54,389 bases of DNA from NCBI GenBank assembly GCA_963575745.1, contig CAUYUJ010000246.1, positions 62,001 through 116,389 on the forward strand, in the 5' to 3' direction. Each line of letters begins with the position of its first letter. Position 1 is the first letter of the stretch. Position numbers and translations under genes: made by a program. The notes beneath the pieces are model-generated. The model worked only from the letters and a program-made list of their open reading frames with translations, was not told the origin of the DNA and did not search any database. This document shows, piece after piece, positions 1,041 through 45,689 of the stretch. Origin of the DNA: Prorocentrum cordatum. Taxonomy: Eukaryota.

Positions 1041-1041
1041 T

Positions 1042-3149: not shown

Positions 3150-3855
3150 ACCTCGTAGAGCTCTTCGGCATCGATGAGCTAGAGGAATTCCGGCGCGGGT
3201 TGGAGCTAGTTGGCCCGCCCGGCCGAGGCGGACAATGTGGTATTGAAAGATATTTTACCATTTATTTTGTGAAAGCAGATTTTTCGCACCTGTAGTGGGT
3301 TAAGGCGCGCCTGCCAGTAAATTTTCAGGTCCGTAGCTGTAGTATTACTATCAAAACACTTGGCGGAATCAACGTTGGATAAAAACAGAAAAACGTGATT
3401 TTTCTAGTTTCTCAGATCTTGCTCTAGACCCTTTCTTCATGCTTACCGATGAGCGCCGTGTGAGAAAAGAGCTCTACGAGGGCCCCGGCGGTAACCTGGT
3501 TGGCGATTTTACGGTTTTGCAGGCCTATTTTAGCGATAAGTTGTGTGATTGATGATTCTCATTTGTGTTGTTGCCTTCATGCGTGCACACATTTGTGTTG
3601 ATGTACACACTCCTTATAAGAGCTGCCAGAGGCTACCGCCTAAGCCGCCCCCCCACGCGCTTGGCGTGGTGAGGCTTTCGCCTTAGCCTCTCTGCCAGAG
3701 GCTACCGCCTAAGCCGCGCGCTTGGCGTGGTGAGGCGCCTGCCCTCGGTGGCCCGCGTTTGGCGTGCCCGCCCGCTTCGGACTGGACTGGGCCTTGGGGC
3801 CCGTGTGTCCGCGAAACGAAAAAACCTGGTTGACGGTTTGCCGCCGGTTCCCAGT
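3150..3855 (+). mobile_element. Family B element interrupted in its 3' hairpin loop by a SINE-like insert
   Basis: ACCTCGTAGAGCTCTT at 3150. The hairpin left arm (3485-3494) is separated from GGTTGACGG..CCGCCGG..CCCAGT (3828-3855). Confidence 0.8.
3503..3822 (+). mobile_element. SINE-like or 5'-truncated retroposon insertion
   Basis: Flanked by direct repeat AACCTGGTTG (3493-3502 and 3823-3832). A-rich 3' end. Internal duplication of CTGCCAGAGGCTACCGCCTAAGCCGC. Confidence 0.7.
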
Positions 3856-4474
3856 TCCGGAGCGCTGGAGAGCTAGTTGGCTCGAAAAAAAGAACTGAAC
3901 TTTTCAGAACTTTTGGTCGGTGACTCGTAGAGCTTCCCTAAGCTAGTTGCTGGAAGCTTAAGAGTCATTCCGGCGCGCTGGAGAGCTAGTCGGCAAGAAA
4001 AATCTCGACGGAACTTTTGGTGACTTTTGGTCGGTTGAAAATTTCGTTCTCGAAATTTGACCATTCGTTAGAGCTCTAGTATTTTTTCCGTGATATTCGA
4101 TCTTATTCCCGCTCGCCATCTTGATCTCAGCTCGATCAGGTAACTTTGAAGGCCAAAAAGCACTCTGGCGGGATCGGCCGTTTCGAGTCATCTTGACATC
4201 CTCCACGGCGGTCCACAGGCCTCGCAGCAGTTCGTTTGAACCGGCGAAGTGTCCGGGGAAGCTTCCGGCAAGCTTCCAAGCGTGCCTGCATGCGCGCAGG
4301 CAACCATGGAAGCCCTTCTGGCAGCGCTTCAGCAGCGCTGCAGGGGAGCCCCCCAGAGCTCTCGAGAAAAGATTCCCTGTCCCCGAGAAACTTCGCTCTT
4401 CAGGTTTTGGACGCTACCAGTGAATAGTACCTCGTACCTCGTAGAGCTCTTCGGCAACGATAAGCTAGAGGAAT

Positions 4475-6609
4475 AACTCGTAGAGCTTCGCTTAGCAAGT
4501 TATTGCTGGAAGCTTAAGAGTAATGACTCGTAGAGCTTCCCTACGCTAGTTGCTGGAAGCTTAAGAGTAATTCCGGCGCGCTGGAGAGCTAGTTGGCTCG
4601 AAAAAAAAGAACTGAACTTTTCACAACTTTTGGTCGGTTGAAAATTTTGTTCTCGAAATTCAACAATTCGTTTGTGCTCTAGTATTTTTTCCCGTGATAT
4701 TAGATCTTATTCCCGCTCGTCATCTTGATCTCAGCTCGATCAGGTACCTTTTACTGCCAAAAAGCACACTGGCGGGATCGGCCGTTTCGAGTCATCTTGA
4801 TACGCGTTGTCGGTATTTTGTACTTAACTCGAGCTGTAGGACAGTCACAGAGCTGGTAAGCTCAGCTAATCGATGTAGAATGATTAGGTGCGTTCGCCTG
4901 TTGAATCCAGAGCTCTGAACTCGGTTTGCTCGCCGAGCTAGGTCCGCAAACCTATTCGTATTATTCAAGTCATCTTGATTCGCACTGTCGCTATTCTGAA
5001 CTTAACTCGAGATATAGGACAGCTACAGAGCTGGTAAGCACGCCTCATAGACTCAGAATCATCAGGCGCGTTCGGCTGTTCGAACCAGAGGTCTGAACTC
5101 GGTCTGCTAGCCGAGCCAGGTCCGCAAACCTATTCGTATTATTCGAATCATCTTGATAGGCGCTCTCGGTTTCCTGTACTTAACTCGAGCTATAGGACAG
5201 CTACAGGGCTGATAGTTACAGAAACCGATTCAGAATCATCAGTCGCGTTTGTCTGTCGAATCCAGAGCTCTGAACTCGGTCTGCTGCGCGATCCAGAATC
5301 ACGAAACTGTTCGTATTCTTCCAGTCATCTTGAGAGCTACTGTCGGCGTTCTGCACTTAACTCGGGCTGTAGGGAGGCTGGAGGGCGGGTAATCACAGGA
5401 ATCGATTCGGAGACATCAGACGCGTCCGTCTGTCGCATTCAGAGGTCTGAACTCGGTCTGATACTCGAGTTGGGCTGAAACACTATTCGTTCTCTGCAAT
5501 TTCTTTCGACATTATATGTTCTCAGGAAGCTCTACGAGTCCCCCGGCGGTAACAAAGGTTGACGGTTTACCGCCGGCGCCCAGTTCCGGAGCGCTGGAGA
5601 GCTAGTTGGCAAGAAAAATCTCGACGGACCTTTTGGTGACGTTTGGTCGGTTGAAAATTTTGTTCTCGAAATTCAACAATTCGTTTGAGCTCTAGTATTT
5701 TTTCCCGTGATATTCAATCTTATTCCCGCTCGCCATCTTGATCTCAGCTCGATCGGGTACCTTTTACTGCCAGAAAGCGTCCCGGCGGGATCGGCCGTTT
5801 CGAGTCATCTTGATACGTCTTGTCGGTATTTTGTACTTAACTCGAGCAGTAGGGCAGCTACAGAGCTGGTCAGCACGCCTATCGCACTCAGAATTATCAG
5901 GCGCGTTCGCCTGTTGAATCCAGAGGTCTGAACTCGGTCTGCTAGCCGAGCTAGGTCCGCAAACCTATTCGTATTATTCGAGTCATCTTGACAGACGCTC
6001 TCGGTTTTCTGTACTTAACTCGAGCTGTAGGGCAGCTACAGGGCTCATTGTCACAGACATCGATGGGGAATCATCAGTCGCGTTCGTCCAATGAACCAAG
6101 AGCTCTGAACTCGGCCTGCTGCCCGAGCTAGATTCGCGAAACCATTCGTATTGTCCGAATCATCTTGAGAAGTGCTCTCAATTCTCTACACTCAACTCGT
6201 GCTGGGGGAGGGCCACAGTGCTGCGGGTCACAGATATCGATTTGCACACCACAGGCGCGTCTGTCGGTCGATTCCAGAGCTCGGAACTCGGTCTGCTGCT
6301 CGATACTGTCGGTTTTCTGCACTTAACTCGGAGTGTAGGGGGGCTGCAGGGCTGGGAATCAGATGAGTGGATTCGCAGACATCAGACGCGCCCGCCTGTC
6401 GCATTCAGAGGTCTGAACTCGGTTTCAAACTCGAACTGGGTTGCAAAACTGTTTGTTTTTTTTTGTTAGAGTCATCTTGAGAGGTCTGAAATCGCTTGGG
6501 CTGAAAACGTAGTCGTTCTTTGGAGTTTTTTCTACACTATATACTGTCAGGAAGCTCTACGAGTCCCCCGGCGGTAAGAAAGGTTGACGGTTTACCGCCG
6601 GCGCCCAGT
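4475..6609 (+). mobile_element. Family A element containing a nested family A copy
   Basis: AAGAGTAAT (4524) resumes as TCCGGAGCGCTGG (5585). Ends CCCAGT at 6609. Confidence 0.8.
4525..5584 (+). mobile_element. Family A element, innermost intact copy
   Basis: GACTCGTAGAGCTTCC left end. Right end is GGAAGCTCTACGAGT, hairpin, CCCAGT. Confidence 0.85.
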
Positions 6610-7271
6610 TCGGGCGCGGGGTGCAGCTAGTTGGCCGACCCGGCCCCGACAGACAATGTGCGAACTTTGGGTCGGTTGGACGAACATTGTGAGAGATTTC
6701 AACATTCGTTTCGAGAATTGGGATTTTTCGCACCTGTAGTGGGTTATTCTGCGTCTGCCAGTGAATTCTTAGGTCTGTAGGTCCAGTAACTCGTAGAGCT
6801 TCCCTTAGCAAGTTATTGCTGGAAGCTTAAGAGTAATTCCGGAGCGCTGGAGAGCTAGTTGGCAAGAAAAATCTCGACGGACCTTTTGATGACTTTTGGT
6901 CGGTTGAAAATTTTGTTCTCGAAATTCAACAAATCGTTTGAGCTCTAGTAGTTTTTCCCGTTATATCCGATCTTATTCCCGCTCGCCATCTTGATCTCAG
7001 CTCGATCGGGTACCTTTTACTGTCAAAAAGCGTCCCGGCGGGATCGGCCGTTTCGAGTCATCTTGATACGCGTTGTCGGTATTTTGTATTCAACTCGAGC
7101 TGTAGGGCAGCTACCGAGCTGGTAAGCACACCTATCGCATTGAGAATTATCAGGCGCGTTCGCCTGTTGAATCTAGAGGTCTGAACTCGGTCTGCTAGCC
7201 GAGCTAGGTCCACAAACCTATTCGTATTATTCGAGTGATCTTGACAGACGTAATCCGAGATGTAGGGCAGT

Positions 7272-8372
7272 AACTCGTAGAGCTTCCCTTAGCAAGTTAT
7301 TGCTGGAAGCTTAAGAGTAATTCCGGAGCGCTGGAGAGCTAGTCGGCAAGAAAAATCTCGACGGACTTTTTGCTGACTTTTGGTCGGTTGAAAATTTGGT
7401 TCTCAAAATTTGACAATTCGTTTGAGCTCTAGTATTTTTTCCCGTCATATTCGATCTTATTCCCGCTCGCCATCTTGATCTCAGCTCGATCGGGTACCTT
7501 TTACTGCCAAAAAGCGTCCCGGCGGGAACGGCCGTTTCGAGTCATCTTGTCACGCGTTGTCGGTATTTTGTGCTTAACTCGAGCTGTAGGGCAGCCACAG
7601 AGCTGGTAAGCACACCTATCGCATTCAGAATTATCAGGCGCGTTCGCCTGTCAAATCCAGAGGTCTGAACTCGGTCTGCTAGCCGAGCTAGGCAAACCTA
7701 TTCGTATTATTCGAGTCATCTTGACAGACGCTCTCGGTTTTCTGTACTTAACTCGAGCTGTAGGGCAGCTACAGGGCGCATTGTCACAGACATCGATGGG
7801 GAATCATCAGTCGCGTTTGTCCATTGAACCGAGGGCTCTGAACTCGGCCTGCTGTCCGAGCTAGGTCCGCGAACCTATTCGTATTGTGCGTATTATCTTG
7901 AGAAGTGCTCTCAATTTTCTGCACTCAACTCGTGCTGGGGGAGGGCTACAGTGCTGCGGGTCACATATATCGATTTGCACACATCAGGCGCGTCTGTCGG
8001 TCGATTCCATAGCTTCGAACTCGGTCTGCTGCTCGAACTAGGTTCGCGAAACTATTCTAGTATTCGAGTCGATACTGTAGGTTTTCTGCACAGAAACTCG
8101 GGCTGTAGGGGGGCTGCAGGGCTGGAATCATATGAGTGTTTGCAGACATCAGACGCGCCCGCCTGTCGCATTCAGAGGTCTGAACTCGGTTTGATACTCG
8201 AAATGGGTTGCGAAACTGTTTGTTTTTTTGTTAGAGTCATCTTGAGAGGTCTGAAATCGCTTGGGCTGAAAAACTAGTCGTTCTTTGAGTTTTTTCCACG
8301 CTATATACTGTCAGGAAGCTCTACGAGTCCCCCGGCGGTAAGAAAGGTTGACGGTTACCGCCGGCGCCCAGT
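7272..8372 (+). mobile_element. Family A element, complete copy
   Basis: Both termini present. Preceded by a right-truncated A copy (6788-7271). Confidence 0.8.
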
Positions 8373-11300
8373 ATTACTATCAAAACACTCGGCGAAACCA
8401 TCTTTGGATGACAACATAAATCGTGATTTTTCGAATGTTTTGGGTCTTCCTCCAGACTCTCCCTGCACATGTACCGAGAAGCGCCGTGCGAGAAAAGAGC
8501 TCTACAAGGGCCCCGGCGGTGACCTGGTTGACGGTTTACCGCCGGTTCCCATAGAGCTCTTCGAAGCTGAGCTAAGAGGAATGCGGGCGCAGGGTGGAGC
8601 TAGTTGGCCGACCGCGCATTAAGAGACAATGTGGTAACTTTGGGTCGAGTTTCTAATGTTTGTGCAGAATTTGAAAATTCGTTTTGAGAACGCGTATTTT
8701 TCTCACGTGTAGTAGGTTACGCCGCGACTGCCAGTTAAATTCTCAGGTCCGTAACTGCAATATTACTATCACAACACTTGCTGGAACCGACTGCCGTTTT
8801 GAGTCATCTTGACGCGCATTAACGGTTTCTGTACTATCTCGGGATATAGGACAGCTACAGAGCTGATGCTTACAGAAACCAATTCGGAATCATGAGGCGC
8901 GTCCATCTGTTCGATCGACAGCTCTGAACTCGGTCTACTGCTCGAGCTGGGTGCGCAAACTTATTTGTATTCTTCGAGTCATTTTGACGAGTGTTGTCCG
9001 TTTTCTCTCGCGATATCTTGAACAAAAATCTCAATGTGTAGTGCGCAGCGCCGCGCAAGAAAGCTCTACGAGGCTCCCGGTGGTAACCTGGTTGACGGTT
9101 TACCGCCGGCTCCCAGTTTCGCGGACCTAGTTCGGGCAGCAGACAGAGTTCAGAGCTCTGTATTCGACAGGCGGACGCCTGATGTCTTTCAATCGATTCC
9201 ACCAAAAGTCAGCAAAAGTTCCGTCGAGATTTTTCTTGCCAACTAGCTCTCCAGCGCGCAGGGGTTGCTTTTAGCTTCCCTTAGCAAGTTATGGCCGGAA
9301 GCTAAGAGTAATTCCGGCGCGCTGGAGAGCTAGTTGGCAAGACAAATATCGACGGAACTGTTGCTGACTTTTGCTCGGTTGAAAATTTTGTTCTCAAAAT
9401 TTGACAATTCGTTAGAGCTCTAGTATTTTTTCCCGTGATATTCGATCTTATTCCCGCTCGCCATCTTGAGCTCAGCTCGATCGGGTGAATATTATTATCG
9501 AAACGCACTCTGGCGGGATCGACCGTTTTGAGTCATCTTGATATGCGCTGACGGTTTTCTGAACATAACTCGAGCTTTGGGACAGCTACAGAGCTGGTAA
9601 GCACAGCTAATCGATGCAGAATGATCAGGCGCGTTCGCCTGTTGAACCCAGAGGTCTGAACTCGGTCTGCTAGCTGAGCTAGGTCCGCAAACCTGTTTGT
9701 ATTATTCGAGTCATCTTGACAGAAACTCTCGGTTTTCTGCACTTAACTCGAGCTGTAGGACCGCTACAGAGCTGATATTTACAGGCACCAATTCAGAATC
9801 ATCAGTTGCGTTTGTCTGTCGAATCCAGAGCTCTGAACTCGGTCTGCTGCCCGATCTAGAATCGCGAAACTATTCGTATCGTTCGAGTCGCTTGCGAGAT
9901 GCTGTCGGTTATCTGACTTAACTCGGGCTGTAGGGGGGCTGCATGGCTGGTAATCACTCGGTTGAAAATTTTGTTCTCGAAATACCTCGTGGAGCTCTTC
10001 GGCATCGATGAGCTAGAGGAATTCCGGCGCGGGGTGGAGCTAGTAACTCGTAGAGCTTTCCGTAGCAAGTTATTGCTGGAAGCTTAGAGTAATTCCGGGG
10101 CGCTGGAGAGCTAGTTACGCCGAGCATTGGCATATAAACTCCTCTCTGACAGCAGCCCAGCTCTGCCGATGCATTTTCTTATGAGTTGATCTCCAGGACC
10201 TGAACGAATATGAACATCGAAAAATTCGAAAGTGAAGATTTTCGAAAAATCTCTATTTTATGATTCTACTCCGATTCTGAGCACTTTCGCCAGTGTCAGG
10301 AGCTCTACGAGGTTCCCGGCGGTGACCAGGTTGACGGTTCACCGCCGGCGCCAGTTGGCAAGAAAAATCTCGACGGACCTTTTGGTGACTTTTGGTCGGT
10401 TGAAAATTTTGTTCTCAAAATTTGAACATTCGTTAGAGCTCTAGTATTCTTTCCGATCATATTCGATCTTATTCCCGCTCGCCATCTTAATCTCAGCTCG
10501 ATCGGGTACCTTTTACTGCCAAAAAGCAGGCAGGCGGGATCGGCCGTTTCGAGTCATCTTGATACGCGCTTTCGGTTTTCTGAACATAACTCGAGCTTCA
10601 GGACAGCTATAACGCCAGTAAGCACAGCTAATCGATGTAGAATGATCAGACGCGTTCGCCTGTTGAATCTAGAGGCCTGAACTCGGTCTGCTAGCCGAGT
10701 TAGGTTCAACAACCTATTCGTATTATCCGAGTCATCTTGACAGGCGCTCTCGGTATTTAGTGCTTAACTCGAGCTGACAGGGCAGCTACAGAGCTCATAG
10801 TCACAGAAATCGATTGGGAATCATCAGGCGCGTTCGTCTGTTGAATCGAGAGCTCTGAAATCGCTCTGCTGCCCGAGCTAGAATCGCGAAACTATTCGTA
10901 TTGTTCGAATCATCTGACGAGGTACTGTCGCTTTCTAAACTTAACTCGGGCTGTAGGGGGCTACAGTGCTAGTGGGGACAGCAATCGATTTGGAGACATA
11001 AGGCGCGTCCGCCTGTGGAAGCCAGAGCTCGGAACTCGGCCTGCTGCCTGAACTCGGTCCGCGAACCTGTTCGTATTGTTCGAGTCATCCTGAAAGATGC
11101 CGGTTTTCTGCACTTAACACGGGCTGTAGGGGAGCTGCAGGGCTGGTAATCACAGGAATCGATTCGGAGACATCAGACGCGTCCGCCTGTCGCATTCAGA
11201 GGCCTGAACTCGGTCTGATACTCGAGCTGGGTTTAGGAAACTATTTGTTTTGTTTGAGTTATCTTCAGAGGTGCTGTTAATTTGCGCACGTAACTCGGGC

Positions 11301-12973
11301 TGTAGCAGAGCTACAGAGCTCGTACAGAAGACAATCCAGAAGCATCAGGGGGCGTTCGGCTGTTGCATCGAGAGGTCTGAAATCGCTTGGGCTAAAAAAC
11401 TATTCGTTCTCTGCAATTTATTTTCTATATTCTATATAGTCAGGAAGCTCTACGAGTACCCCGGCGGTAAGAAAGATTGACGGTTTACCGCCGCGGACAA
11501 TGTGATAACTTTTGGGTGGTTTTGCGAAAATTTGAACGATTTTTGACCATTTATTTTGAGAAAGCAAATTTTTACGCCGAGCATTGGCATATAAACTTCT
11601 CTCTAACAGTAGCTCAGCTCTCTCGATGCATTTTTGCATGAGTTGACTTCCAGGAACTGAGCGAATATGAACATCGAAAAAATCGAATTTGAAGATTTTC
11701 GAAAAATCTCAATTTTTTGATTCTGTGTCGATTCTTTAACAGTGAGAGGAGCTCTACGAGGTTCCCGGCGGTGACCAGGTTGACGGTTCACTGCCGGCGC
11801 CAGTAATTCCGGGGCGCTGGAGAGCTAGTTGGCAAGAAAAATCTCGACGGACCTTTTGGTGACTTTTGGTCGGTTGAAAATTTTGTTCTCAAAATTTGAG
11901 CATTCGTTAGAGCTCTAGTATTTTTTCCCATGATATTCGATCTTTTTACCGCTCGCCATCTTGGTCTCAGCTCGATCGGGTACCTTTTACTGCCAAAAAG
12001 CAGGCAGGCGGGATCGGCCGCTTCGAGTCATCTTGATACGCGCTGTCGGTTTTCTGAACATAACTCGAGCTTCAGGACAGCTACAGGGCCAGTAAGCACA
12101 GCTAATCGATGTAGAATGATCAGGCGCGTTTGCCTGTTGAACCCAGAGGCCTGAACTCGGTCTGCTAGCCGAGCTAGGTACAAAAAGCTATTCGTATTAT
12201 CCGAGTCATCTTGACAATCGTTCTCGGTATTTTGTGCTTAACTCGAGCTGCAAAGCAGCTACAGAGCTCATAGTCACAGAAATCGATTGGTAATTATCAG
12301 GCGCGTTCGTCTGTTGAATCGAGAGCTCTGACCTCGCCCTGTTGCCCGAGCTAGAATCACGAAACTATTCGTATTGTTCGAATCATCTGAAGAGGTACTG
12401 TCGCTTTCTAAACTTAACTCAGGCTCTAGGCAGCTACAGTGCTGGTGGGGAAAGCAATCGATTTAGAGACATCAGGCTCGTCCGCCTGTGGAAGCTAGAG
12501 CTCGGAACTCGGCCTGCTGCCTGAACTCCGTCCCCGAATCTGTTCGTATTGTTCGAGTCATCCTGAAAGATGCTGTCGGTTTTCTTCACTTAACTCGGGC
12601 TGTAGGGGAGCTGCAGGGCTGGTAATCACAGGAATCGATTCAGAGACATCAGACGCGTCCGTCTGTCGCATTCAGAGGCCTGAACTCGGTCTGACACTCG
12701 AGCTGGGTTTAGGAAACTATTCGTTTTGTTTGAGTTATCTTCAGAGGTGCTGTTGATTAGCGCACGTAACTCGGGCTGTAGTAGAGCTAGAGAGCTCGTA
12801 CAGAAGACAATCCAGAAGCATCAGGGGGGCGTTCGGCTGTTGCATCGAGAGGTCTGAAATCGCTTGGCCTGAAAAACTATTCGTTCTCTGCAATTTATTT
12901 TCTACATTATATATAGTCAGGAAGCTCTACGAGTCCCCCGGTATGCGATGTTTCTGATACGAGGCGTATTTCT

Positions 12974-28262: not shown

Positions 28263-28303
28263 GCCTTACGGCCAGTGCCGCCGACCCTGAAGGGCGACGA
28301 CGA

Positions 28304-28342
<39 letters not shown>

Positions 28343-33989: not shown

Positions 33990-36900
33990 CTCCAGGGCGC
34001 TGTCCGCAGCGCCGCCCGATTGGGCGCCTAGCGAGCCTAGCAAGTCTAAGCGGAGGGCGCGTGTGAGCGCCTCGGCGGCAGCCACTTCACAATCTGTGAT
34101 CGTGGAGTGCGGTGGTAAAAGAAAGGCACTGGAGGCGATGTCCCTCCAAACGAGGGCATCACGTGGCTCACTCCCTGGGGTCCTCCTGCGGGCTATCTGA
34201 CGAGAGCCGAATGGAGAAGGAGTGGTGTGGTAAGTCGGACCCCACTGACTGTAATCCAAGAAGCTTTTCTGCAGCCAAAAACCACATCCGCAACCGTTGC
34301 CGTCCACTCCCCCATCGTATGCCCCACGATCGGCGACGTGTATAAGATATTGTGACTCAATCGGACTGCATGCAACCTGATTGGAGTAGAAAGTGCGGCC
34401 CTCTCGGGCCAGGTGGGTGAGCTCGTCGGCCCTGGTGTTATCTTCCCTGTACTCATGTCGATCTATGTCCCGTCCTATGTTCGCCGCACGGATGTTCGCG
34501 CGGCAGCTCACCTCGTATATGGTCTCCACACACTCCGCAACTCTGTCGGCATAACCCTGATTATGGCACCTCCACTTCCCTTGGAGCCACGATGAGACCA
34601 GTAGTGAGTCCCCTTGGAGGTCCACGCCTATCCCCTCACTCAAGACGTCCCAAACCGTAGCACGCTGACATATTATGGCCAACCGCTTGTACTGTTTCTC
34701 AAGGGCCTCAGGAGTCGTTCCCTTGGTGGACTGCTTGGCCTCGAACTGGGTGGAGCTCCAACTGGGACCTGTGGTGGCAACATGCCAATATTCAAAGATT
34801 TTGTGCTTGTTGAAGTGCCCCAAGATCGTCCGCCACAACTTCACAAAGCCTGTGTACGAGTCGTCAAAGCCGTCCCACCAGCAGGGTCCCAAGACTTCCC
34901 TATACGGGTATTGCCAGGTCCGTTGACCTATACTCGTGGGACCAAAACGTCTCCTGGTGCCCGAGCGTGCCAGTGAGAGCTGTCCCGGTGCATGCAAAGA
35001 AGATGTCAGGTCGTCTCTCCGAGACGTCCAGTCAGGATTGTCGAGGAGCAAAGTGCCTCGACTGTCCAGAAAGGTACGTGAACACCGTCCGTCCCCTCTG
35101 TCGATCCTCAGTCTCACTTCCCTCCCATCCTCCGTATCCGTCTCCCTGGCAGTGTAACGAGAATGAATAGCAAGCTGACCCTGCACATACTGAGCCACGC
35201 TTTGTGCAACATTGAAACTGCGTGCACATACCAACTGTGTGATAGATTGGAAACCCTCATCACAAAATTGCCGTCGGACGTGGTCCAATCGTCGTGGTCT
35301 CCAAATGTCCCAGCTCTCAGTGGCTGGCTTCCTGCGCCCGAACATAGACATGAGTAGACTCCCCTCGCAGCTGTGCAATAATCGTAGCCCCTCCTGCATC
35401 CAGTGTACAGCAGTCGAGGCCGTAAGACATGACGCTCTGAACTCTCTGTTGATATCTATAGAACTTAGCCCGTGGGCTCACATATTTAAAACGAAGTACG
35501 GTGCATGTGCGAAGAACGCCCTCCTGGCCATCGTGATCCGATGACGAATATCTCCATGTGTATTATCAAACTCTGATTCCACCACCGTGCCTAGTACCTG
35601 CATCTTCGTCACTCTCTTGAGCGGGAAGGGGGCCCCTGCAATATCCACCTCAAAGGAGCACGGTGGGGAGTCTCCTGCAATAATATATTCGAAAGAGTGT
35701 GGTTTCCATGATAAACCCCAGTCTTTGAAGCAAGTGGTGAGTGATGTCAAGAGATACTGTAAATCCTGAGCCGAGGTCGCAACGAGATATATGTTATCCG
35801 CCCACAAGGCATGTGAGTACCTGCACACGTCCATAGATACATCCAAGATGTCCGTCACGGGGTATCCTAGCTGGAGGTCCTCCCAAGACTTGAATAGGTC
35901 AGCACACATCGCAAGCACCACAACATTAAACAGCAAGGGACTCTCTGTGCCCCCCGTACGTCTGGAGCGGTCCCAGGATGTAGTAGCCTCCAAGCCCTCG
36001 AAACATAATATACCCGACGTCCCAACAAGAGGCTCCAGGCTAGCATGTGTGAGCCTAGGGTGGACTTTGAGGGTCTCCAGAGCACGCGCCACAACTTGGA
36101 TCGTAATGTTGTCGAAAGCCTTTTTAATATCGGCCTGCGCAACATAAGCAGTTTGGTCGTTGTTGTTTTTGCCCCAGACGCTCCCATGTTGACATATCTG
36201 TTTGAGTGGCCCCACGATCTCCCAAGGGCTCCTACCAGGGCTGAAACCGTAGTGTCCCAGTCGTTGCAGGTCCCCAGATACCTCCGCCTCCAGTGTAATA
36301 GTGAGGGATGTCAGGTACCATTTGGCAAGACTATTGGCAACGACAATCGAGCGTGTCTCACTCAATGATCGTAACGTGGGTACTTTGGGCATCAATGTAA
36401 TGAGAACCTGTCGCCATGTATCTGGAGTCGGAGAGCATGCACGATAGATAGAGAGAAATGTGGTGTAGATGTGGCGGATAGATCTCCACGTGAGTGATTT
36501 CAACAACTCGGCTGCACATCCGTCGGGCCCGCACGACCTCCCCGTGCGAAGGCGTGCTCTCGCTCTGAGCACAACGGCAAAAGAGAGCTTCGGCGCTGGC
36601 CGACCTGACACATTGGCCTGCTCCCGCAAGCGTCGTAGCAGAGAGAGTTGCTCTGCGCGAGACTGTGCACACGACATGGTTGTCGCCCCGTGTATCTGAA
36701 GCGCATCCTCCCACTTCCACCGATCCTCCGTAACCTCCCCATCCACCTCCAACGATGTAGTCTGAACCCGCTGTGTTTTCCTTCTTCCCTGAAGCTCCCA
36801 AGTAAGTCGGGCCCTGTCGTATTGTCGTTTGTGGGGTCTGATTTGTTGTGCAATGGTTTTCATTTGGGCTCTCTTATCTTGGGGGTCCATGTCGGTGCGT

Positions 36901-37979
36901 GACTTGAGTCTGCGGTACATGGCCTGGAGATCGGCCAACGCCGCCGGCTTGACAGGCGGGGAGCTGACTGCTGGCGGCACAAGATAGGGATCGGCGGGAC
37001 CAGACAAGCACGACCCAATGTCTGCAGGGGATGTGTTGGGAATGCCGATATCCGCGAGAGAGGCGAACTGGGATTGTTGGAGCTGGTCAGAGAAGGGCCG
37101 ACGAGCCGTAGAGGTAGGGCGCGGTTGGGAGCGAGGTCGATATCGAGGAGCGCGAACCTGGGGTCGAATCTCGAACTTGAGGAAGGCATGATCAGAGTAG
37201 TGGCTGTGGACTCCGTCACGCACTCATTTCACTATGGTCTCTCCTCCCCCCCAGGCCGTCGGAGTGCAAACGTAATCTAGCACTTTGCTAGGGCTGGCGG
37301 CTCCCCACTTCCAGTAGGTCGGAGTCCGTTCTGCAAAAGTATTGATGGCACAAAGTCCCTCCTCCCCCATGAAGTGTTCAAAGTGCTCCCTCGTCATCTC
37401 CTCCCTCCATCGTCTGCTCTCTGAATCATTCCCATATCCTCTCTGCCGTGTCATCATGAGTCCCTCCCCCGTGATCTGCTCCCCCCGTGTCGACGCAAGG
37501 TCAGGCGTGAGCTCCGCGTTGGCGTCGCACACAAGAAGCAAGCAAGCGCCTGGGAGCCTCTGCACCGCCTCGCGGCGTATCTGCCGTAGCTGTCGGCACA
37601 TTGTCTCCATATCCGTCGGAGCGTCATCATACGAGCTGTCTTTGAAATAAGCACTGCAGAAGCAAACACCGTTACCGAAAAGCACACCTGCGATCCGATC
37701 TAAGTTAACCCAAGTATGACTTATGTTGCATTGGTACGATGCCCGTACCAGAACCCCTGCTCGGAGACAGCTGGATGGATAACCCAGCCAACCAAGCCGT
37801 CTGATCCCATCGGAGAAAATTAAATGCTGGCACTCCTGGAGGCCAATGACCGCAACTCCTTCATGGAGGAGCTGTCAGCATAGGGCAAATCCTCTAGCAT
37901 CACGGCGACCAGCCCTGGCAACATTCATGGAACCTGCCGCGAAAGGCTTGTTGCCTCTGTCCGCGCTCTCGCGGCCCCC
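33990..37979 (-). pseudogene. LINE ORF2 (APE endonuclease, RT, permuted RNase H) with in-frame stops and frameshifts
   Basis: APE motifs SMNV, GLQE, SAY, CDANA, LDY, SDH. RT motifs GPDG, LMPK, YGFSPGRS, ADIKKAFDNI, RTGGTESPLLFN, WADN. RNase H motifs GDSLLV, REDNTRADEL, YDGG..GCGFW, DCEVAA. Stops at ~37876, 37224 and 35478. Confidence 0.9.
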
Positions 37980-39330
37980 TCACTCCAAGCTGGATTGGAA
38001 AGCGGCGACTCTGGTCTGGATACCGTAACGAGGCAAGACCGCGTCCCAGACATCCTTGTGGATGGTCCAGCGTGCTTCTGATGCCTTCCAAACTGCAAGC
38101 TCGATGGGTCGATGGGTCTGGAGGTCGGGCGGCTTGGTCCAGATAGTGCTGATGCCTTTGCCTGATCCAGTCTGACTGCTGATGCCAAACTTTGTGTTCG
38201 GATATTATTTGAGAATTGTTTGCCTCCACATGCCATGGAAACGTCCCACGGCGGCAATAGAACCCTTCTTCCATTCTGGGGCCTCGATCTTGATGATGAC
38301 TTTCTTTGGACGACGATCCATATCTGTGAGGATCTTTTGCATGGTGCGATCTCCTGCGAGCTTCTTTTGGGCATCTGTGCGTTCACTAGGATCCAAAAAA
38401 AAACGCACCCCACAAATGTTTACAGTTCCATAATACATCCCCATCGGTACCAGCGCACAACTTGATACGGCAGAATGAAAACATGGGCTGTTTACCGTTG
38501 ATACGAAGGGTACCAACATCATCCACTTTGGCTCTATCTTCCTTCTCGAGGAGGTCCAGTAAGTTTCGAATATGATGCTGGCAATCGAGGTCCGTGATCT
38601 GTGTCTCTGAGCGCGACATCGCACTGGACGTATCCGTGACCAAGCCGCGGAGTTCGATATATGATGGATTCCACTGGCGCTGTACTCCAGCTCCTCCAAC
38701 CGATGACGTGCCTCCCGCACTCGGGGCCGCCGTGGAGGCCGACGTACCTGCTTTGATGAAGGCGATCTCTTTCTCAAGGCGGTCGAGTTTGGTATCCTGC
38801 TTGTCGTTGTGAGCCCTGAGCGAACCAATATCATCCTTGACCTCTGTGATTTCCTGCTTGAGCTCAATCATATTCTCGGACTGGAGGGAGGCCAGGGCGC
38901 TCAGGGCATCTCCGAGCTTGCCGAAATCGTCGGGTGCATCATCCGCTTTGCACGCCTCGCTGAACGAGGCCATAGATTTCTCACAGGCCTCGCGTTTTGC
39001 CTCCAATGCCGTCGCCTGTGCCCGTCGTTTGACCCTGCGGTCGTCGCCCATGACTACATCCGACACAGCCGTCGTCATATCTGATGCCGCTCTGTGGAGC
39101 TGACTGAGATGTACTCCCCAGCGTTGACACCAGTCTTGGTCGTCCTGAGGGGACCTTTTGCGGGATGCTGCCTGGGCCGCTGGGTCCTCAGCCTCCGTAT
39201 CTTTGAGGTGTTTGTCAAGATCAATAGACTCAGTGGGATCGATAGAAGCGTCGATGAGATGAGTCTTCTCGTCTGGCCTCTGTCTGGTACAGTGACGTGT
39301 CAAAACCTGATTAAAGCGGTACGGCGTGAT
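37980..39330 (-). pseudogene. LINE ORF1 (coiled coil plus probable RRM-like domain), disrupted
   Basis: Heptad segment LKQEITEVKDDIGSLRAHNDKQDTKLDRLEKEI followed by WNPSYIELRG. Frameshift near 38400, stop at 38205, terminal TGA at 37980-37982. Start position uncertain. Confidence 0.7.
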
Positions 39331-39509
39331 GCATCCCTCGACCAATCGCAATCGCACGAGAGCAGGAGTCGAACTCACACGAGAGCAGGAGTCGGACGCA
39401 GGCGAGAAAAATATACTTGTGGTGTAAGAGGTGAAAAGGGGAGGTAGAGGTGACTGCAAGCGGGAAGGTGGCGTATCGTGACCTCCTCCCCTTCTGGAGC
39501 GACGTTGCT

Positions 39510-39536
39510 CTTGAGCCGACGTTGCTCTTGAGCCAA
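39510..39536 (-). other. Dinoflagellate spliced-leader relics at the LINE 5' end
   Basis: Minus strand reads TTGGCTCAAG (39527-39536) and GGCTCAAG (39510-39517), matching the 3' end of DinoSL DCCGTAGCCATTTTGGCTCAAG. Confidence 0.6.
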
Positions 39537-42500
39537 GTTGCTCTTGGTTACCGCTGGGAACTCGTAGCGCTTCCTCGTGCAATGCGGGCGCGGCAATCTT
39601 GCGCTGCGCGCGCGAGGGCGTGATCTGCTGGAGGAGAACGTGGGGGAGAAGAAGGGGCGAGGGAAACATGTCAATTGAAAACAATACTAGACAGACCAGA
39701 CCGAGTTCAGACGTCTGGACACTTTGAGTCAGCGCACCTGTTGATTTCGGTCTGACTGCTGTGCCAAACAGCGTAAAGAAAACCATGGCCGTCTAAAAAA
39801 AATGGAGAATACGAATAGTTGTTTTCGGTCCGAGCGTTGATGGCAGGCCGAGTTTAGGCGTCTCGATGATATAAACTGGCACGCCTGATTATATCCTTCC
39901 GATTGCCGTGCCAAATAGCTCTGTATTTCATCTGCAGCTCGGATTAAGTCAAGAACACCTATATCATCTCCAAAAGACAAACAGAGTACGAATAGTTGTG
40001 CAGTCGCAGCGCTGATAGCAGACCGAGTTCAGGCTAGATACTTCAGACTATCGTGTATGACGAGTTCCTTCCCATTGCTGTGCCAAACAGCTCTGTAGTT
40101 CATCTGCAGCTCGACTTAAGTCAAAAAAACTATCACCATCTCGAATACGAGTACGAATAGCGTCGCAGCCCCAGCGCTGATAGCAGACCGAGATCAGGCG
40201 TCTAGATACTTTGAACTAGCGCGCCCGATAGTGTCCTTCCGATTGTTGTGCTGAACAGCTCTGTAGCTTATCTGCAGGTCGAGCTAAGTCAAGAAAACCA
40301 CCACCATTCCCAAGGAATGAGCAGAGTACGAATGGTTTTTGAGCTCCAGCGCTGATAACAGACTGTTGTCAGCCGTCTAGATACTTTAAACTCGCTCGCA
40401 TGATTATTGTCTTCCGATCGTCGTGCCAAACAGCTCTGGAGCTCGTATACAGCTCGATTTAAGTCAAGAAAATCATCACCATCTGCAAAGAAAATAGAAT
40501 ACGAATAGTGTTTTGGCTCCAGCGCTAATAACAGGCCGATTTCAGGCGTCTAGATACGTCAGACTATCGCGTCAGCTGGTTACTTCTGAGTGCTGTGCCA
40601 AAGAGCTCTGTGTCTGATCTGCACCCGATTAATGCCAAAGAGCTCCATGTCTGATCTGCACCTCGAGTGAAGTCAAGAAACTCGTCATAATCTCGAACAA
40701 AAAAATAGACTACGAATAAGAGCTTCGAGAACCTAGCTCGGGTAATAGACGGTTCAGATATCAGGACACTCCAGACGAACGCGCATGACGATTCTAGATC
40801 GATTAGGTGTGCACAACAGCTCTGCAGCTATCCTACAGCTCGAGTTAATTTGGGAAAACCGACAGCACCTGTCACAATGACCCAAACAGCCGATCCGGCC
40901 AGAGTGCTTTCTGACAGTGACAGGTACCCGATGGACCTGAAATTAAGTCGGCGAGCGGCAATGAGACCGAATATGAGGACCTGCTGTTCAAGAACCCGAA
41001 TAGCCAAATAAGAGAACACTGGCGCCCGCGATGAACCGTCAACCTGGTCACCGCCGGAACCTCGTAGAGCTCCTTGCACGCGTAAGAGTGCTCAGAATCG
41101 AAGCAGAGAACTAAAAGGAATATTTGCTTAAAGTCTTCATTTCTCATGTTTTGATGCAGCGTCCAAAACCGGGAGAGCAACTGGCGCCGGCGGCAGACCG
41201 TCAACCTGGTTACCGCCAGGGACCTCGTAGAGCTCCTTGCACGCTCGACAGTGCTGGGCAAAGGAGCAGATAGCTTCTCGAAGCATTTCTCGAAAGGTGA
41301 AACATTGATTTTTTCATGTCGACATGAAGTTGGTTCCTCCAGCTGTTTTGATGGTAAAAGTGCGCCTACAGAGCTCATAGTAAGACACAGAGACCCTCAT
41401 AGTCTTCTACAAGTGCGGAAAAAATTGGTATTTAAAAATGATTTTTTAAATATCGTTCAAATCTTAGGAGCAACCACCCCAAAGTCACCACATCTTCTTG
41501 TCTGGTCGGGTCGACCAACTAGCTCCACCCCGCGCCCGAACTGGGCGCCGGCGGTAAACCGTCAACCCTGGTTGCCGCCGGGAGGCTCGTAGAGCTTCCT
41601 TGCCATATACCATCTCCAAAGAATTAGCAGAGAACGAATAGTGTTTCAGCCCGGGCGCTGATAGCAGACTGATTTCAGGCGTCTAGATACATTTAACTAG
41701 CGCCCCTGATGATTCCCTTCCTTCTGCTGTGCTGAACAGCTCTGTAGCTCATCTGCAGCACGAGTACAACCACGAAAACCAATACCATCTCCAAGAAATT
41801 AGCAGAGTACGAATAGTTGTTCAGCCCGAGCGCTGATAGCAGACTGAGTTCAGGCATCTAGATACTTCCAAATAGCGCGCCTCAATAATCCCTTCCGATT
41901 GCTGTGCCTAAGAGCTCTGGAGCTCATCTGCAGGTCGAGTTAAGTCAAGAAACCATTTCATCACCAGAAAAAAAAAACAGAGTATGACTAGTCGTTCGGC
42001 TGCTGCGCTCATAACAGACCCAATTCAAGCGTCTAGATACTCGTACTAGCGCGCCTGATGATTTTCTTCCGATTTCTGTGCCAAAGAGCTCTCAAGCTCA
42101 TCTGCAGCTCGAATTCAGCGAAGAAGTTCATCATCATCTCGAGAAAAATCGGTACAATATAAATTTTGTTTCGGACGCAGCTCGAGTAGCAGACCGAGTT
42201 CAGACCTCTAGATGCTTTAGACGAACGCGCCTGATATTCTCAATCGATTACGTGTGCGCACCAGCTCTGTATCTCCCCTACAGCTCGAGTTAAGTACAGA
42301 AAACCGACAGCACCTGTCAAGATGACTCCAAACAGCCGATCCCGCCTGGATGCTTTTTGGCAGTAATAGGTACCCGATCGAGCTGAGATTTAGACGGCGA
42401 GCGGGAATAAGATCGAATATCGCGGGGAAAAATATTAGAGCCCTAACGAATTTTTGAATTTCGAGAACATAACTGGCAGCCGGCGGTGAACCGTCAACCA

Positions 42501-42848
42501 GGTTACCGCCAGGAGCCTCGTAGAGCTCTCCTTCTCGCGCGGAGGTGCTCAGACCACATGGAGGGAGCTTTCTGAAGCGTAAGCTGGAAAACACAAACAA
42601 AACGCATTCTTCGGTATCCATCCGAAGGCAATTCCTTCAAGTGTTTCGATAGTAATACTGCAGTGCAGCTACAAGCCTGAGAATTTACTTGGCGGACGCG
42701 GCATAACCCACTACAGGTGCGAGAAATACCGGTTCTCGAAACGAATTTTCGAATCTCTCACAATCTGGAAAAACCGACGCCAGGTCATGGCATTGTCCGC
42801 CCGTGCCGGGTGCACCAAGTGGCGCCGGCGGTGAACCGTCAACCTGGT

Positions 42849-44599
42849 CTTTTGCGGTCTTTTGCGGACGGTCGATTCGAGCCTCCACGGAGGCAGACCG
42901 AAACACAAAGCAACTCAGAACAGAGCCTGAGAGCAAAACGCTGAGCGCACTAACAGCGAAGCTGTACAGCAATGCCCAAGAGCGTAAATCCCACTAAGAG
43001 TCAACTAAGAAAAGTAAGAATATCCAGAGCTGTACAAACAGCAAAGCAAGAAGCAGTGAGAGACCATACAGTAACCACTGGTTTATACAGCGATTACCGT
43101 CTCAACACCACTGAGAATAGAAGCAGTGAGAGACCATGCAGTAACCACTGGTTTATACAGCGATTACCGTCATTACCACTGAGACAAACACGAAACTAGC
43201 AACTAAAATGGCGAGTGCGCTTCAAAGCAATGCGAGACCATGCAGTAACCACATATAGCGATTACCGTCTCAGCACCACTGAAAGACCATGCACGTGAAA
43301 CACAACGTCGAATTTGCGGTCGACTGTGCGGGCCGTCTGGCCCAGTCGCTAGCTGGAAAACGGCGGCATACAGAGTCAGGCAAGACACCCGCCACTCTTT
43401 GAGCGGGAGTGGGCAAATGCAAAACTCTTATTCCGAACAAAGTGAAGATCACGCGGAGCTCTTATACCAACATGCGCGCATGCCCGACACACACACAGCA
43501 TGGCAAGAGCCAACGCAAACACAAAGTCCGAAGTATGTCATAACAACCCGCGGTAAGACAGGAGTCGTATGCTCACGTCGAATGTGTGATAACTGAATGT
43601 CTGATAACGTGCACGACTCTAACTCACGAAAGAAACGATTCCAACCTCCCCTCGAAGGTTCCCACGGCGTAGTGAATAAGAGTACTCAGACTGCAACCAA
43701 AGTCAAAATTGGATACGTGCTGAGAGCAACTCGTACAAGATAACAAATGCGGCAAGTACAAACGCAAGTGGCCTGGAAGTACACAGACTGATATGGAATG
43801 GGACGGAAGAGGACACTTGTGGAACACAGACTGATATTGATGCTGTTGAATTGGCTCTGGCTCAACTGCATACATACGTATCGTACTCAACTGTCCATCT
43901 TGTTATTGCCTGTGAATTGCCTTCTTCTTGTTGAGCGAATCCACGTATCATATATGGAGTTCGTTACATCTGAATTGTCAGGCATGGATTTTGTAGCTTC
44001 AGATTGGACTGCTACGGCGTTGTTTACTTCCGAGTTTCTCGCTGCTCGTTTGTCTACGCTCGAAGTGTGTGTTAGTGACATATTGCCGTGTTCGCCCTTC
44101 GTACGGAGGTGAGTCTCGCCTGCATGAGCGAGACCAGCTGTATGGGCATGGTGTCAAAGTTTCTCAATCGAAGATAGCTTTCAGTGGTGCTGAGACGGTA
44201 ATCGCTATATTTGGGTACTGCATGGTCTCGCATTGCTTTGGGGCGCACTCGCTATTTTAGTTCTCTTAGCTTCGTGTTTGTCTCAGTGGTGTTGAGACGG
44301 TAATCGCTGTATAAACCAGTGGTTACTGTATGGTCTCTCACTGCTTCTAGCTGTGCTTCCATATCTATGGTCTGCATTGCTTCCCTCATTATATTGTTAG
44401 TTGTTTTCTCGTGTGCTTGCAGTCTTGTGCATATTTGTACAGCGCAGTCTTGTGCATATCTGTGCAGCTTCGCTGTTTGATGCACCTCTGCTTTAATCTT
44501 TGCAGCTTCGCTGTTTTCCTGTACAGCTTCGCTGTTTAGGTTCCCTGTGTCCTGGCCTGCTCTCCAGGGAGCTCGAATCGGCCAACGCAGACTACGCAG
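42849..44599. mobile_element. Pair of related retroposon-like 3' ends facing outward (long imperfect inverted repeat)
   Basis: 43050-43115 is the reverse complement of 44281-44347, and 43180-43285 is the reverse complement of 44179-44286. Each outer end joins directly to CC(A/T)GGTTGACGG of a hairpin. Confidence 0.6.
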
Positions 44600-45689
44600 A
44601 CCTGGTTGACGGTTTACCGTCGGCTCCCAGTGCCTCGTAGAGCTCTTCGGCATCGATGAGCTACAGGACTTCCGGCGCAGGGTGCAGCTACTTGGCCCAT
44701 CCCGCCCGGGCAGGCAATGTGGCCACTCACTGATTCCGCCACGGCCGCAGGCGATCCCCCGAATCCACGACGCCGAGTCGCCCCGAGGCGACGCCGCGTC
44801 GAAGGCGCCGACGCCGCGCCCGGGAGGTGCCAGACGCCCCAGCAGCGCCGGACCCCACGCGCGAAGCCCCGTCGCAGAGCACTCCGCCGAGCGCGGCGAG
44901 ACACAGGCCACGCGCAGCGCGGCGCCGCCGACGCACTGCCCCGCCCCTTGCGACGCCCTCCAGGCAGCATCACCCACGCACTCGCTCGCGCTCTGCCCCG
45001 CCCTGCCCAGTGCGCCGCCGATCCCAATGCCGGGAGAGAACCTGCGCGCGCGCGCCGCCCCCCACATGGGTAGGTTGCATCGGGCGGAAATCCATCTTCG
45101 AGGGCCATTGACAGGTCAAGGGTGGCTCCCATACAGTAGTGTATGTCCTCTGTAAGTCTGTAAGCAGCCAAGACTTATCACAACTCGCAGTGTGGTGTCA
45201 CCTAGAGGGATTGGCGGACATGTCCATCAAACAAAAACTCATTATCCTCCTCCTCCTCCTCCTCCTCGTCCTCGTCCTCCTCCTGCCGTTCCTCCTGCGC
45301 AACTTATTATCCTCCTTTTTCTCAGTATCCTCCTCCTCCTCCTTCTCCTCCTCCTCCCCCTCTCCCCCGAAAAAGGAAATCCTTAGGAATCCTTCGGTGG
45401 GTTGTCGTGGCCCTTACCGTCGTCGCCGTCGCCCTCGTCGTTCGCCCCCGCGTCCCTGCCGTCGCCCGCGCCGGTGGCCCGAGACTCGCGGCGGGTCGCC
45501 GCGCGCGCCCTCCTGGGCCCCTGGGCCCTCGCCGTCTCCGAGGCGCGGCCCCCCCCCGAAGGGGAGGAGGGGAGGGCAGAGAGCCTCTCTGCCAGAGAGG
45601 AGGGGAGGAAGGATAGGGAAGGAGGGCGGAAAGAAAGGGAGGGCGAGGGAGAAGGGGAGGGGGAGGGAACGGAACGGGGAAAACGACAA

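Follow-up and report, generated by a model that had tools for sequence, protein, structure and literature searches.

Which process brings the 3' ends of several different retroelements to one and the same position of a short hairpin? The question is raised by a 54,389-bp stretch of the Prorocentrum cordatum genome (contig CAUYUJ010000246.1 of assembly GCA_963575745.1, positions 62,001 to 116,389 of the forward strand), referred to here as the window, which consists mostly of a repetitive host element of rolling-circle type that ends in a terminal hairpin. At this locus, one parasite of the genome seems to have made another its target. We propose that a site-specific lineage of long interspersed nuclear elements (LINEs), equipped with an apurinic/apyrimidinic endonuclease (APE)-type domain, inserts by target-primed reverse transcription (TPRT) at the border between the hairpin arm and its loop, and that shorter elements are mobilised in trans. 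We assign this reading a probability of about two in three. The LINE lineage is real and probably site-specific.

Five tails at one position of the terminal hairpin

The hairpin is marked by its loop motif, GGTTGACGG, of which the window contains 32 exact copies compared to 0.35 expected (none of 100 shuffles reaches 32); about 45 hairpin sites are present once mismatched copies are added. The context of each exact copy was listed over 90 nt on the 5' side and 60 nt on the 3' side. At 25 of the 32 copies the left half is canonical, i.e., GAGCTCTACGAG-(2-3 nt)-CCCGGCGGT[AG]AC-(3-4 variable nt), and 3' of the loop the canonical hairpin consists of GGTTGACGG and TT[TC]ACCGCCGG, followed by CGCCCAGT. 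One copy (28174) has a degenerate left arm and another (33378, minus strand) has lost it. At the other five, all sequence to the left of the variable loop bases is replaced by an unrelated, retroelement-like tail (tail junctions 1 to 5, Table 1). These tails belong to a 322-bp insert (insert 1), to two LINEs (LINE2 and LINE3) and to two related non-coding copies, X-minus and X-plus. They are the same five junctions that a preliminary description of this DNA had assigned to a single hairpin position, and their tails end within 1-2 nt of one another.

The orientation relative to the hairpin is identical for all five tails, which lie in five different host copies representing three different loop variants. 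Because the downstream host flanks differ from junction to junction, the five did not arise by duplication of a single event. If A or ACC microhomology is allowed for, the bottom-strand nicks of all five junctions fall within 1-2 nt, between the AA and CC of GGTAACC. With the top strand numbered G1 G2 T3 A4 A5 C6 C7, and with the terminal A residues, or the ACC/GACC of the X tails, assignable to either partner, four junctions are compatible with a nick between A5 and C6, and the nick of LINE3 falls between C6 and C7. The bottom-strand site reads 5'-..CC(W)GGT(T/C)^ACCGCC-3', whereas the top-strand break deduced from insert 1 is GGTTG^ACGG, which bears a local resemblance to the bottom-strand GGTT^AC. 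Since the stem measures 10 bp (12 bp in three of the four subfamilies) and the loop 7-9 nt, the nick is located at the arm/loop border rather than deep in the loop.

At 3 nt each, the approximately 45 sites make up about 0.25% of the window, and by simple arithmetic the chance that five out of five tails would fall on hairpin sites is about 1e-13. Each of the five 3' ends carries a GC-rich stem-loop shortly 5' of its tail. The further claim that poly(A) inserts are absent elsewhere holds for A/T runs of at least 7 nt inspected by eye: among 22 such runs only the tails of LINE2 and LINE3 are retroelement ends, and the remaining 20 belong to host repeat units, to the interior of LINE3 or to non-repeat DNA (the A6 tail of insert 1 falls below this threshold). 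When the window was searched with the LINE proteins using tblastn, no other LINE remnants were found, the matches being confined to the two LINE loci.

Clean insertions and the inverted X pair

The junctions had originally been counted as five insertions. Three of them, those of insert 1, LINE2 and LINE3, are clean and possess 5' junctions, whereas the two non-poly(A) junctions belong to an inverted pair and are not demonstrably simple insertions. The clean insertions bear the footprints of TPRT: poly(A) tails (A6, A11 and A8), target-site duplications of 8 and 4 bp, one deletion of 4-6 nt, and one truncated copy together with one full-length copy.

Insert 1 is flanked by an 8-bp duplication, CCTGGTTG (3495-3502 and 3825-3832), and its removal with one of the duplicates yields the canonical hairpin of the subfamily found at 8526, 25006 and 28095. 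No tRNA (ARAGORN, 0 tRNAs) and no Rfam match at gathering thresholds was detected in insert 1, and no similarity to LINE2 or LINE3 was found, 3' ends included. Having neither a tRNA-like or Rfam head nor a tail in common with LINE2 or LINE3, it does not merit its earlier label of short interspersed nuclear element (SINE), and it is classed here simply as a short retroposon with a poly(A) tail.

The host sequence 5' of LINE2, GAAGCTCTACGAGTCCCCCGG, is interrupted inside the left arm; as this flank is broken at CCCCCGG, 4-6 nt of the target were lost (CGGT, possibly with AA). LINE2 begins inside its reverse transcriptase (RT) and is thus 5'-truncated. Its single open frame extends to 15883, and the 3' untranslated region is composed of a stem-loop followed by C8 and A11. 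LINE3 is bounded by a 4-bp duplication, CAAG (33965-33968 and 39543-39546), with ..CCCAGCGGTAACCAAG as its 5' flank and CAAGGTTGACGG as its 3' flank. Its first open reading frame (ORF1; frame 38386-39792, minus strand) codes for a coiled-coil protein, and ORF2 (33960-37874, minus strand) for the APE, RT and C-terminal domains, in that order. ORF2 has no stop codon of its own: the frame stays open across the A8 tail and ends with the TGA in the target GGTTGA (..QTQKKQG-stop).

X-minus adjoins a hairpin right half (42800-42845, minus strand) with a junction that is ambiguous over GACC. X-minus and X-plus are 92-97% identical over internal repeats of approximately 170-250 bp, and they are arranged head to head with their tails outward, such that a hairpin right half occurs on each side, with no left half between them and no 5' junctions. 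The strand of the host array switches along the window, from plus (up to about 32.7 kb) to minus (up to 42.8 kb) and back to plus (at 44.6 kb), the second switch lying inside the X pair at about 43750. A model in which the pair arose by inversion was rejected: it predicts a reciprocal junction at the first strand switch (about 32.7 kb), where no X-like sequence is present.

Table 1. Positions of host sequences, inserts and tail junctions in the window
Feature	Position	Strand	Content
Host array, interrupted by inserts	1..33000	+ (to ~32.7 kb)	Terminal inverted repeats (TIRs), tandem repeats, terminal hairpins
Host left half, insert 1	3469..3502	+	Right TIR GAGCTCTACGAG, left hairpin arm, first CCTGGTTG copy (3495-3502)
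Insert 1, 322-bp poly(A) (A6) retroposon	3503..3824	+	Internal 26-bp duplication; GC-rich stem-loop before tail
Host right half, insert 1	3825..3863	+	Second CCTGGTTG (3825-3832), loop motif, right arm, host 3' end ..CCCAGT
Loop motif copy at tail junction 1	3828	+	A6 then CCT
Host left half, LINE2	12920..12941	+	Right TIR, shortened left arm ending CCCCCGG
LINE2, 5'-truncated LINE, 3006 bp	12942..15947	+	RT, GMGAVSSVT-like repeats, C-terminal domain
Host right half, LINE2	15948..15980	+	GAAA, GGTTGACGG, right arm, CGCCCAGT
Loop motif copy at tail junction 2	15952	+	A11 then GAAA
Host right half, LINE3	33930..33968	-	CAAG duplication (33965-33968), GGTTGACGG (33957-33965), right arm, CTCCCAGT
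Loop motif copy at tail junction 3	33965	-	A8 then CAA
LINE3, full-length LINE, 5574 bp	33969..39542	-	5' leader, ORF1, ORF2, A8 tail
Host left half, LINE3	39543..39572	-	GCGCTACGAG-TT-CCCAGCGGTAAC, then CAAG (39543-39546)
Host elements	39543..42845	-	Intact hairpins at 41044, 41206, 41567, 42499
Loop motif copy at tail junction 4	42844	-	(GCAAAAGACC)2 then A
X-minus, non-coding element	42846..43750 (inner boundary approximate)	-	3' stem-loop, GCTCGAATCGACC, (GCAAAAGACC)2
X-plus, related copy	43751..44602	+	Tail (ACGCAGAC[TC])2; adjoins hairpin right half 44603-44640
Loop motif copy at tail junction 5	44604	+	(ACGCAGAC)2..C then T

Occupied and empty sites outside the window

Public Logan contigs, which cannot give copy numbers, were compared with the LINE3 stretch. 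One joint from an empty-site contig (run X1), 33964>39543, skips 5578 nt, corresponding to LINE3 together with its duplication; the similar joints 33968>39560 and 33966>39582 represent uninterrupted hairpins from other copies. The empty-site contigs and the target-site duplications bear out the original proposal that the elements were inserted into pre-existing hairpins. Other contigs match the hairpin right half and a T-run and then pass into three other sequences, departing from LINE3 at 33975, 33976 and 33985 (at least two, two and three contigs, respectively). They originate from three marine-metagenome runs of one study and are among the loose ends listed, which are part of a set with 139 more; they represent further tails at the same hairpin site.

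Because the LINE3 ORF2 frame is open into the target, the predicted protein ends of its relatives report their flanks, although indirectly. The 90% cluster around P0002, which represents the LINE3 family, has eight members, four of them with a C-terminus, and three of these four end in ..QTQKNQG-stop, readable as AAA AAC CAA GGT TGA, i.e., an A-run followed by the CCAAGGTTGA loop. The C-terminal change that separates these three JGI proteins from the window copy is explicable by a single base substitution. A 45%-identical NCBI protein ends in ..KIPG-stop, which is compatible with CCA GGT TGA, CCAGGTTGA. These ends, three with ..KNQG-stop and one with ..KIPG-stop, are those of P0046, P0048, P0049 and P0006.

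The hairpin pattern was not matched in viral contigs (0 matches). In prokaryote genome contigs it occurs at seven loci, five of which are chance matches in GC-rich bacteria and two of which lie on eukaryote-like contigs in a single metagenome-assembled genome (MAG). The latter, a marine Nitrospinota MAG (G001; contigs C80, C84, C99 and C118; loci L003, L006 and L009-L034), contains dense arrays of homologous hairpin elements with AT-rich spacers. These contigs look like eukaryotic contamination and reveal the element family in a second organism. A 17-mer has 28 matches in them, compared to one for a control pattern.

The LINE proteins

The identification of the two large inserts as LINEs was upheld by an RVT_1 match in both (Pfam, above the curated cut-off; E 1.1e-8 for LINE2 and 3.5e-11 for LINE3) and by an N-terminal domain with an APE fold. 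The RTs of LINE2 and LINE3 are 36% identical over 302 residues, and their C-terminal regions of approximately 370 residues share 29% identity. The two are deeply diverged families of one lineage, with a common architecture, and occupy the same site. Between the RT and the C-terminal domain, the LINE2 ORF includes a long run of imperfect 9-residue GMGAVSSVT-like repeats (about 14210-14640, plus strand), which is lacking in LINE3. The internal stops of LINE3 ORF2 are two in-frame TGA codons (37224-37226 and 35478-35480, minus strand), with a TGA falling within the endonuclease domain, and the codon preceding the open frame and the final stop are likewise TGA; this could be the outcome of decay (e.g., CGA to TGA) or of something else.

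The C-terminal domain (33963-34670, minus strand, in LINE3; 15170-15880, plus strand, in LINE2) shows RNase H-like motifs in swapped order, with GDSLL..W and YRExNTRADELTHLAREG followed by DGGV..G.G.G and TITDxE..A.E, and the same order is found in all seven aligned relatives. The arrangement suggests a circular permutation, as far as motif order can indicate. The domain was nevertheless not accepted as a circularly permuted RNase H: the RVT_3 matches are weak (E 0.011 and 0.15) and the structural model has a pLDDT of 54. For this model no Foldseek match was obtained at E <= 0.001, and RNase HI appeared at rank 25 (E 0.38). Protein word searches with the full LINE2 ORF and with the last 130 residues of LINE3 gave no match. 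A metagenome scan with the C-terminal-domain alignment of the two LINEs returned 269 pattern-matching stretches, one of which encodes a relative whose match reaches the contig end and thus offers no 3' flank.

The endonuclease domain was assessed at the levels of sequence, profile and predicted fold. The N-terminal domain of LINE3 ORF2 matched no Pfam family, even at E values up to 10. An exhaustive HMMER search among 1.84 billion representatives yielded 20 relatives of the domain. Of 11 homologues scanned for Pfam Exo_endo_phos (PF03372), one reached the cut-off, four remained below it (E 0.0013-0.05) and six had no match. The homologue at the cut-off, P0008 (44% identical; E 2.5e-5, 24.6 bits vs 24.5), is also the closest named homologue of the domain and carries the annotation of a partial Prorocentrum cordatum protein. 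An alignment of nine sequences revealed the motifs GLQEC, SAYF, DANxEL, NTF, LDY and SDH, which we take to be the active-site motifs of the endonuclease/exonuclease/phosphatase (EEP) proteins. The nine-sequence profile, run against PDB, had best E values of 0.28 (APE2) and 0.92 (R1Bm EN).

The AlphaFold model of the domain (pLDDT 69, pTM 0.72) has R1Bm EN (2ei9) as its best Foldseek match (E 8.8e-6, approximately 19% identity over the fold alignment), with APE1, ExoIII, L1 EN and TRAS1 EN among the further matches (top hits E 9e-6 to 1e-4). The motif alignment, the weak PF03372 matches of the homologues and the matches of the model to the R1Bm EN, APE1, L1 EN and TRAS1 EN folds speak for the APE-type label that the LINEs had been given, and the model supports the assignment of the ORF2 N-terminal domain as a putative APE-fold endonuclease.

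Spliced-leader relics at the LINE3 5' end

Immediately after its 5' junction (39500-39545, minus strand), LINE3 reads AGCAAC-TTGGCTCAAG-AGCAACG-TCGGCTCAAG-AGCAACGTCGCTCC. The segment TTGGCTCAAG agrees with the 3' end of the dinoflagellate spliced leader (DinoSL) in 10 of 10 nt and TCGGCTCAAG in 9 of 10, and AGCAACG follows each of them. The 22-nt spliced leader (SL) is given as DCCGTAGCCATTTTGGCTCAAG in PMC5585692, where stacked, shortened relics of it are described as a signature left when trans-spliced RNAs are retroposed repeatedly. The two stacked relics therefore suggest repeated trans-splicing and full-length retrotransposition of the LINE RNA. Together with the Prorocentrum cordatum homologue of the endonuclease, they support a dinoflagellate origin of the element.

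The host rolling-circle element

The host unit is composed of a 5' TIR, T-RMCTCGTAGAGC(T/C).., internal tandem repeats of approximately 180 bp, a 3' TIR, GAGCTCTACGAG, the hairpin, and an end in ..CAG-T, where the outermost T on either side is the flanking base. Nineteen forward-oriented 5' copies of RMCTCGTAGAGC(T/C).. face a 3' GAGCTCTACGAG, and two TIR subtypes co-vary, ACTCGTAGAGCTTCC occurring with GGAAGCTCTACGAGT and ACCTCGTAGAGCTCTT with AAGAGCTCTACGAGGT. T precedes the 5' repeat in all 19 forward host copies, and ..CAGT ends 28 of 37 right halves. Since most copies abut other copies, no clean empty site for insertion between two T residues was seen in the host array. Many units are joined end to start (..CCAGT-ACCTCGTAGAGC..), and the ~180-bp repeats are found, e.g., at 17600-18450 and throughout 1-33000.

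The hairpin begins 2-5 nt after the repeat and has a 10-12-bp stem, with folding energies of -11 to -15 kcal/mol (DNA folding). Among 59 hairpins from the two organisms the loop GGTTGACGG is nearly invariant, and three stem pairs show compensatory change (41 cells vs 16 in shuffles); the count of 41 was reached by none of 500 shuffles, which, the sequences being related, is to be taken as support and not as a probability. The hairpin was also considered as a known RNA gene or spliced-leader gene, and this was dropped (Rfam, 0 matches). Five hairpin variants with deletions were observed, at 25390-25425 (+), 32630-32665 (+), 33378 (-), 33631 (-) and about 31590 (+). In two of them (25401 and 32643) the deletion begins directly behind the terminal repeat and reaches GGTTG^ACGG, which is the top-strand position of the insert 1 duplication boundary. 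The deletion variants may reflect recurrent breakage, or may be footprints of aborted or lost insertions.

Neither Helitron_like_N nor PIF1, as signs of a Rep-helicase, was matched in the 16 frames scanned among the window's 43 frames of at least 150 aa. Non-autonomous copies are the rule in such rolling-circle families. Word depth in run X1 sums to 84,406 over the hairpin flank, compared to about 33-213 along LINE3, values that do not represent copy numbers. These features fit a putative non-autonomous, hugely abundant element similar to Helentron/HLE2 rather than a canonical Helitron. The original designation of the host as Helitron-like is accordingly retained in part, as a rolling-circle type assigned by its structure only, with the layout of Helentron/HLE2 in place of that of a canonical Helitron. 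According to PMC11417382, Helentron/HLE2 elements have TIRs of 12-16 nt, are flanked by T on either side and carry a stem-loop at the 3' end, behind the right repeat. Like them, the host has short TIRs and a stem-loop after its right repeat, and T borders most of its ends; unlike them, it is seen in the window without a RepHel copy and forms dense head-to-tail or nested arrays with ~180-bp tandem repeats. Canonical Helitrons, in contrast, begin with 5'-TC and carry a hairpin with a CTRR suffix.

Beyond the host array and the X pair, the stretch between 44.7 and 51.5 kb is GC-rich and non-repetitive, with long frames that have no Pfam or atlas match; for the 754-aa frame at 48230-50491, nothing informative was found in the protein atlas. 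It precedes a satellite (about 51550-53000; unit of approximately 40-45 bp, by eye) that contains the palindrome CCATTTGGCAGGAGCTGCCAAATGG and is unrelated to the host array.

Proposed mechanism and alternative explanations

In the mechanism that we propose, the element's own endonuclease would nick the bottom strand at the left arm/loop border, at 5'-..CC(W)GGT(T/C)^ACCGCC-3'. The exposed ..TT-3' would pair with the poly(A) tail and prime cDNA synthesis; in the GGTGACC subfamily, the exposed ..GGTC-3' would instead pair with the GACC that ends each repeat of the X tail. The top strand would be cut a few bases away, e.g., at GGTTG^ACGG, leading to a target-site duplication of 4-10 bp or to a small deletion. 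Mobilisation in trans would account for the 322-bp poly(A) insert and probably for the X family, and the LINE RNA, acquiring its 5' end by SL trans-splicing, would not need a promoter of its own. We infer that the specificity is conferred by the endonuclease of the LINE itself, that it may extend genome-wide, and that insertion may inactivate the host terminus. Such inactivation is plausible because the insertion splits the stem-loop. The hairpin site may also be the safe haven for the LINEs that was first suggested. The 3' hairpin is reportedly important for termination in the reconstructed Helitron Helraiser.

Several observations weigh against this reading. Direct comparison of the LINE3 endonuclease domain with PDB (phmmer/hmmsearch) gave nothing significant (E >= 0.28). 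No RT-encoding partner was found for the X pair, and its junctions, which share their position with the other tails, may not be insertions and may not be independent of each other. With regard to the evidence outside the window, run X1 is perhaps the window's own sample and X2-X4 come from one study, while the three concordant JGI proteins may represent one locus assembled three times. P0047, a protein of the LINE3 family with a C-terminus, diverges approximately 45 residues before the tail, and the read-through ends of two sister-family proteins (P0067, ..KKKQVTK; P0068, ..SKANK) do not decode to the hairpin; the two may derive from copies at other positions. Of the 27 homologous hairpins in the second organism, 26 have both arms, and the interrupted one has no A-tail.

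The most serious alternative, although an improbable one in our estimation, is that the hairpin is a structural hotspot. A hairpin in cruciform or single-stranded form would be nicked or broken where arm and loop meet, either by cellular nucleases or in the course of replication. The cDNA of any retroelement could then be primed there, and the elements themselves would have no sequence specificity. This would account for the variety of the 3' ends at this spot (three poly(A) types and GACC-repeat tails) and would suit the computed fold of the top strand (a hairpin with a 10-12-bp stem, -11 to -15 kcal/mol), and three hairpin variants without a left arm, two of them deleted up to GGTTG^ACGG, suggest recurrent breakage. 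The insertions nevertheless have a single tail orientation and intact tails, with regular duplications in two of the three clean cases. Tails and duplications of this kind are unlike those of endonuclease-independent LINE insertions. Moreover, the site has been kept by LINE families that are only 36% identical in RT, and in the second organism nearly all homologous hairpins (26 of 27) are uninterrupted.

It is far less likely that the elements inserted broadly and survived only in the junk array or at the hairpin position. The window is indeed mostly host repeat, so that most insertions would be neutral; retention of this kind, however, cannot focus insertions on 1-2 nt within approximately 36 kb of equally dispensable repeat, and no LINE remnant occurs elsewhere in the array. 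We attach equally little weight to capture by the host, whereby the rolling-circle element would have taken up retroelement fragments beside its 3' hairpin, either through capture as in Helitrons or by recombination of its ends. Uptake of foreign sequence is known for Helitron-like elements, and the X pair, which has a hairpin right half on either side but lacks left halves, would be in keeping with it. Insert 1 and LINE3, however, each sit between the two halves of a single hairpin and are bounded by a short direct duplication, and their removal restores the canonical hairpin. The least probable explanation is an artefact or a single ancestral insertion duplicated with the array. The inverted structure at 42.8-44.6 kb could indeed be a mis-join of the assembly or result from an ancient duplication in inverted orientation. 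The three poly(A) inserts, however, lie in different host subfamilies and flanks and either show no sequence relationship or reach just 29-36% protein identity, and independent contigs show both empty and occupied sites.

The site-specific LINE lineage may be embedded in a broader picture, which as a whole we regard as doubtful and put forward tentatively. An old dinoflagellate LINE clade would be an obligate hyperparasite of Helentron-type transposons, its APE endonuclease reading the conserved sequence or shape of the terminal hairpin, a cis element needed by the transposon's own Rep-helicase. Insertion would split the hairpin and may curb the host element, and expression would be drawn from the surroundings, with SL trans-splicing supplying the 5' end and, in one family, the target GGTTGA serving as the ORF2 stop.

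Relation to known systems

The closest parallel is provided by Tx1L and Tx2L of Xenopus laevis, likewise APE-type LINEs with a fixed position inside another multicopy transposon (Tx1D and Tx2D). In PMC8869645, "other TEs" (transposable elements) are listed among the targets of site-specific non-LTR elements (i.e., those without long terminal repeats), with Christensen et al. 2000 cited for Tx1L, and a conserved, structured and very abundant cis element is the type of target in which site-specific LINEs settle. Compared to Tx1L, the target described here is the terminal stem-loop of an HLE2-like rolling-circle element instead of a cut-and-paste transposon, and the LINEs, which reside in a dinoflagellate, have an extra conserved C-terminal domain and spliced-leader relics at the 5' end. 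Strict positioning by an APE endonuclease, together with a few bases of microhomology that link the 3' end of the RNA to the nicked target, is likewise known from R1, TRAS and SART of insects; their targets, however, are 28S rDNA or telomeric repeats rather than a transposon, and identity to R1Bm EN is no more than about 19% over the fold alignment. R2, NeSL, CRE and SLACS are also site-specific LINEs in multicopy targets (rDNA or spliced-leader genes). They use a C-terminal restriction-like endonuclease, as opposed to the N-terminal APE fold found here. In Creative Commons PMC papers and bioRxiv (subscription journals and Repbase reports being outside this scope), we found no report of a LINE homing into the terminal stem-loop of a rolling-circle transposon, nor of a site-specific LINE in dinoflagellates.

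Few LINEs are site-specific; those that are illustrate how a long and precise target can be acquired by an APE endonuclease, and they have been considered for targeted DNA integration. Retroposition and trans-splicing are already known to shape the gene content of dinoflagellates. If the specificity holds genome-wide, the present elements would be the second retrotransposons, independently of Tx1L, to have specialised on another transposon, they would provide a natural enzyme that recognises a hairpin-forming site of approximately 15 nt, and they would illustrate the interplay of transposons in the very large, repeat-rich genomes of dinoflagellates.

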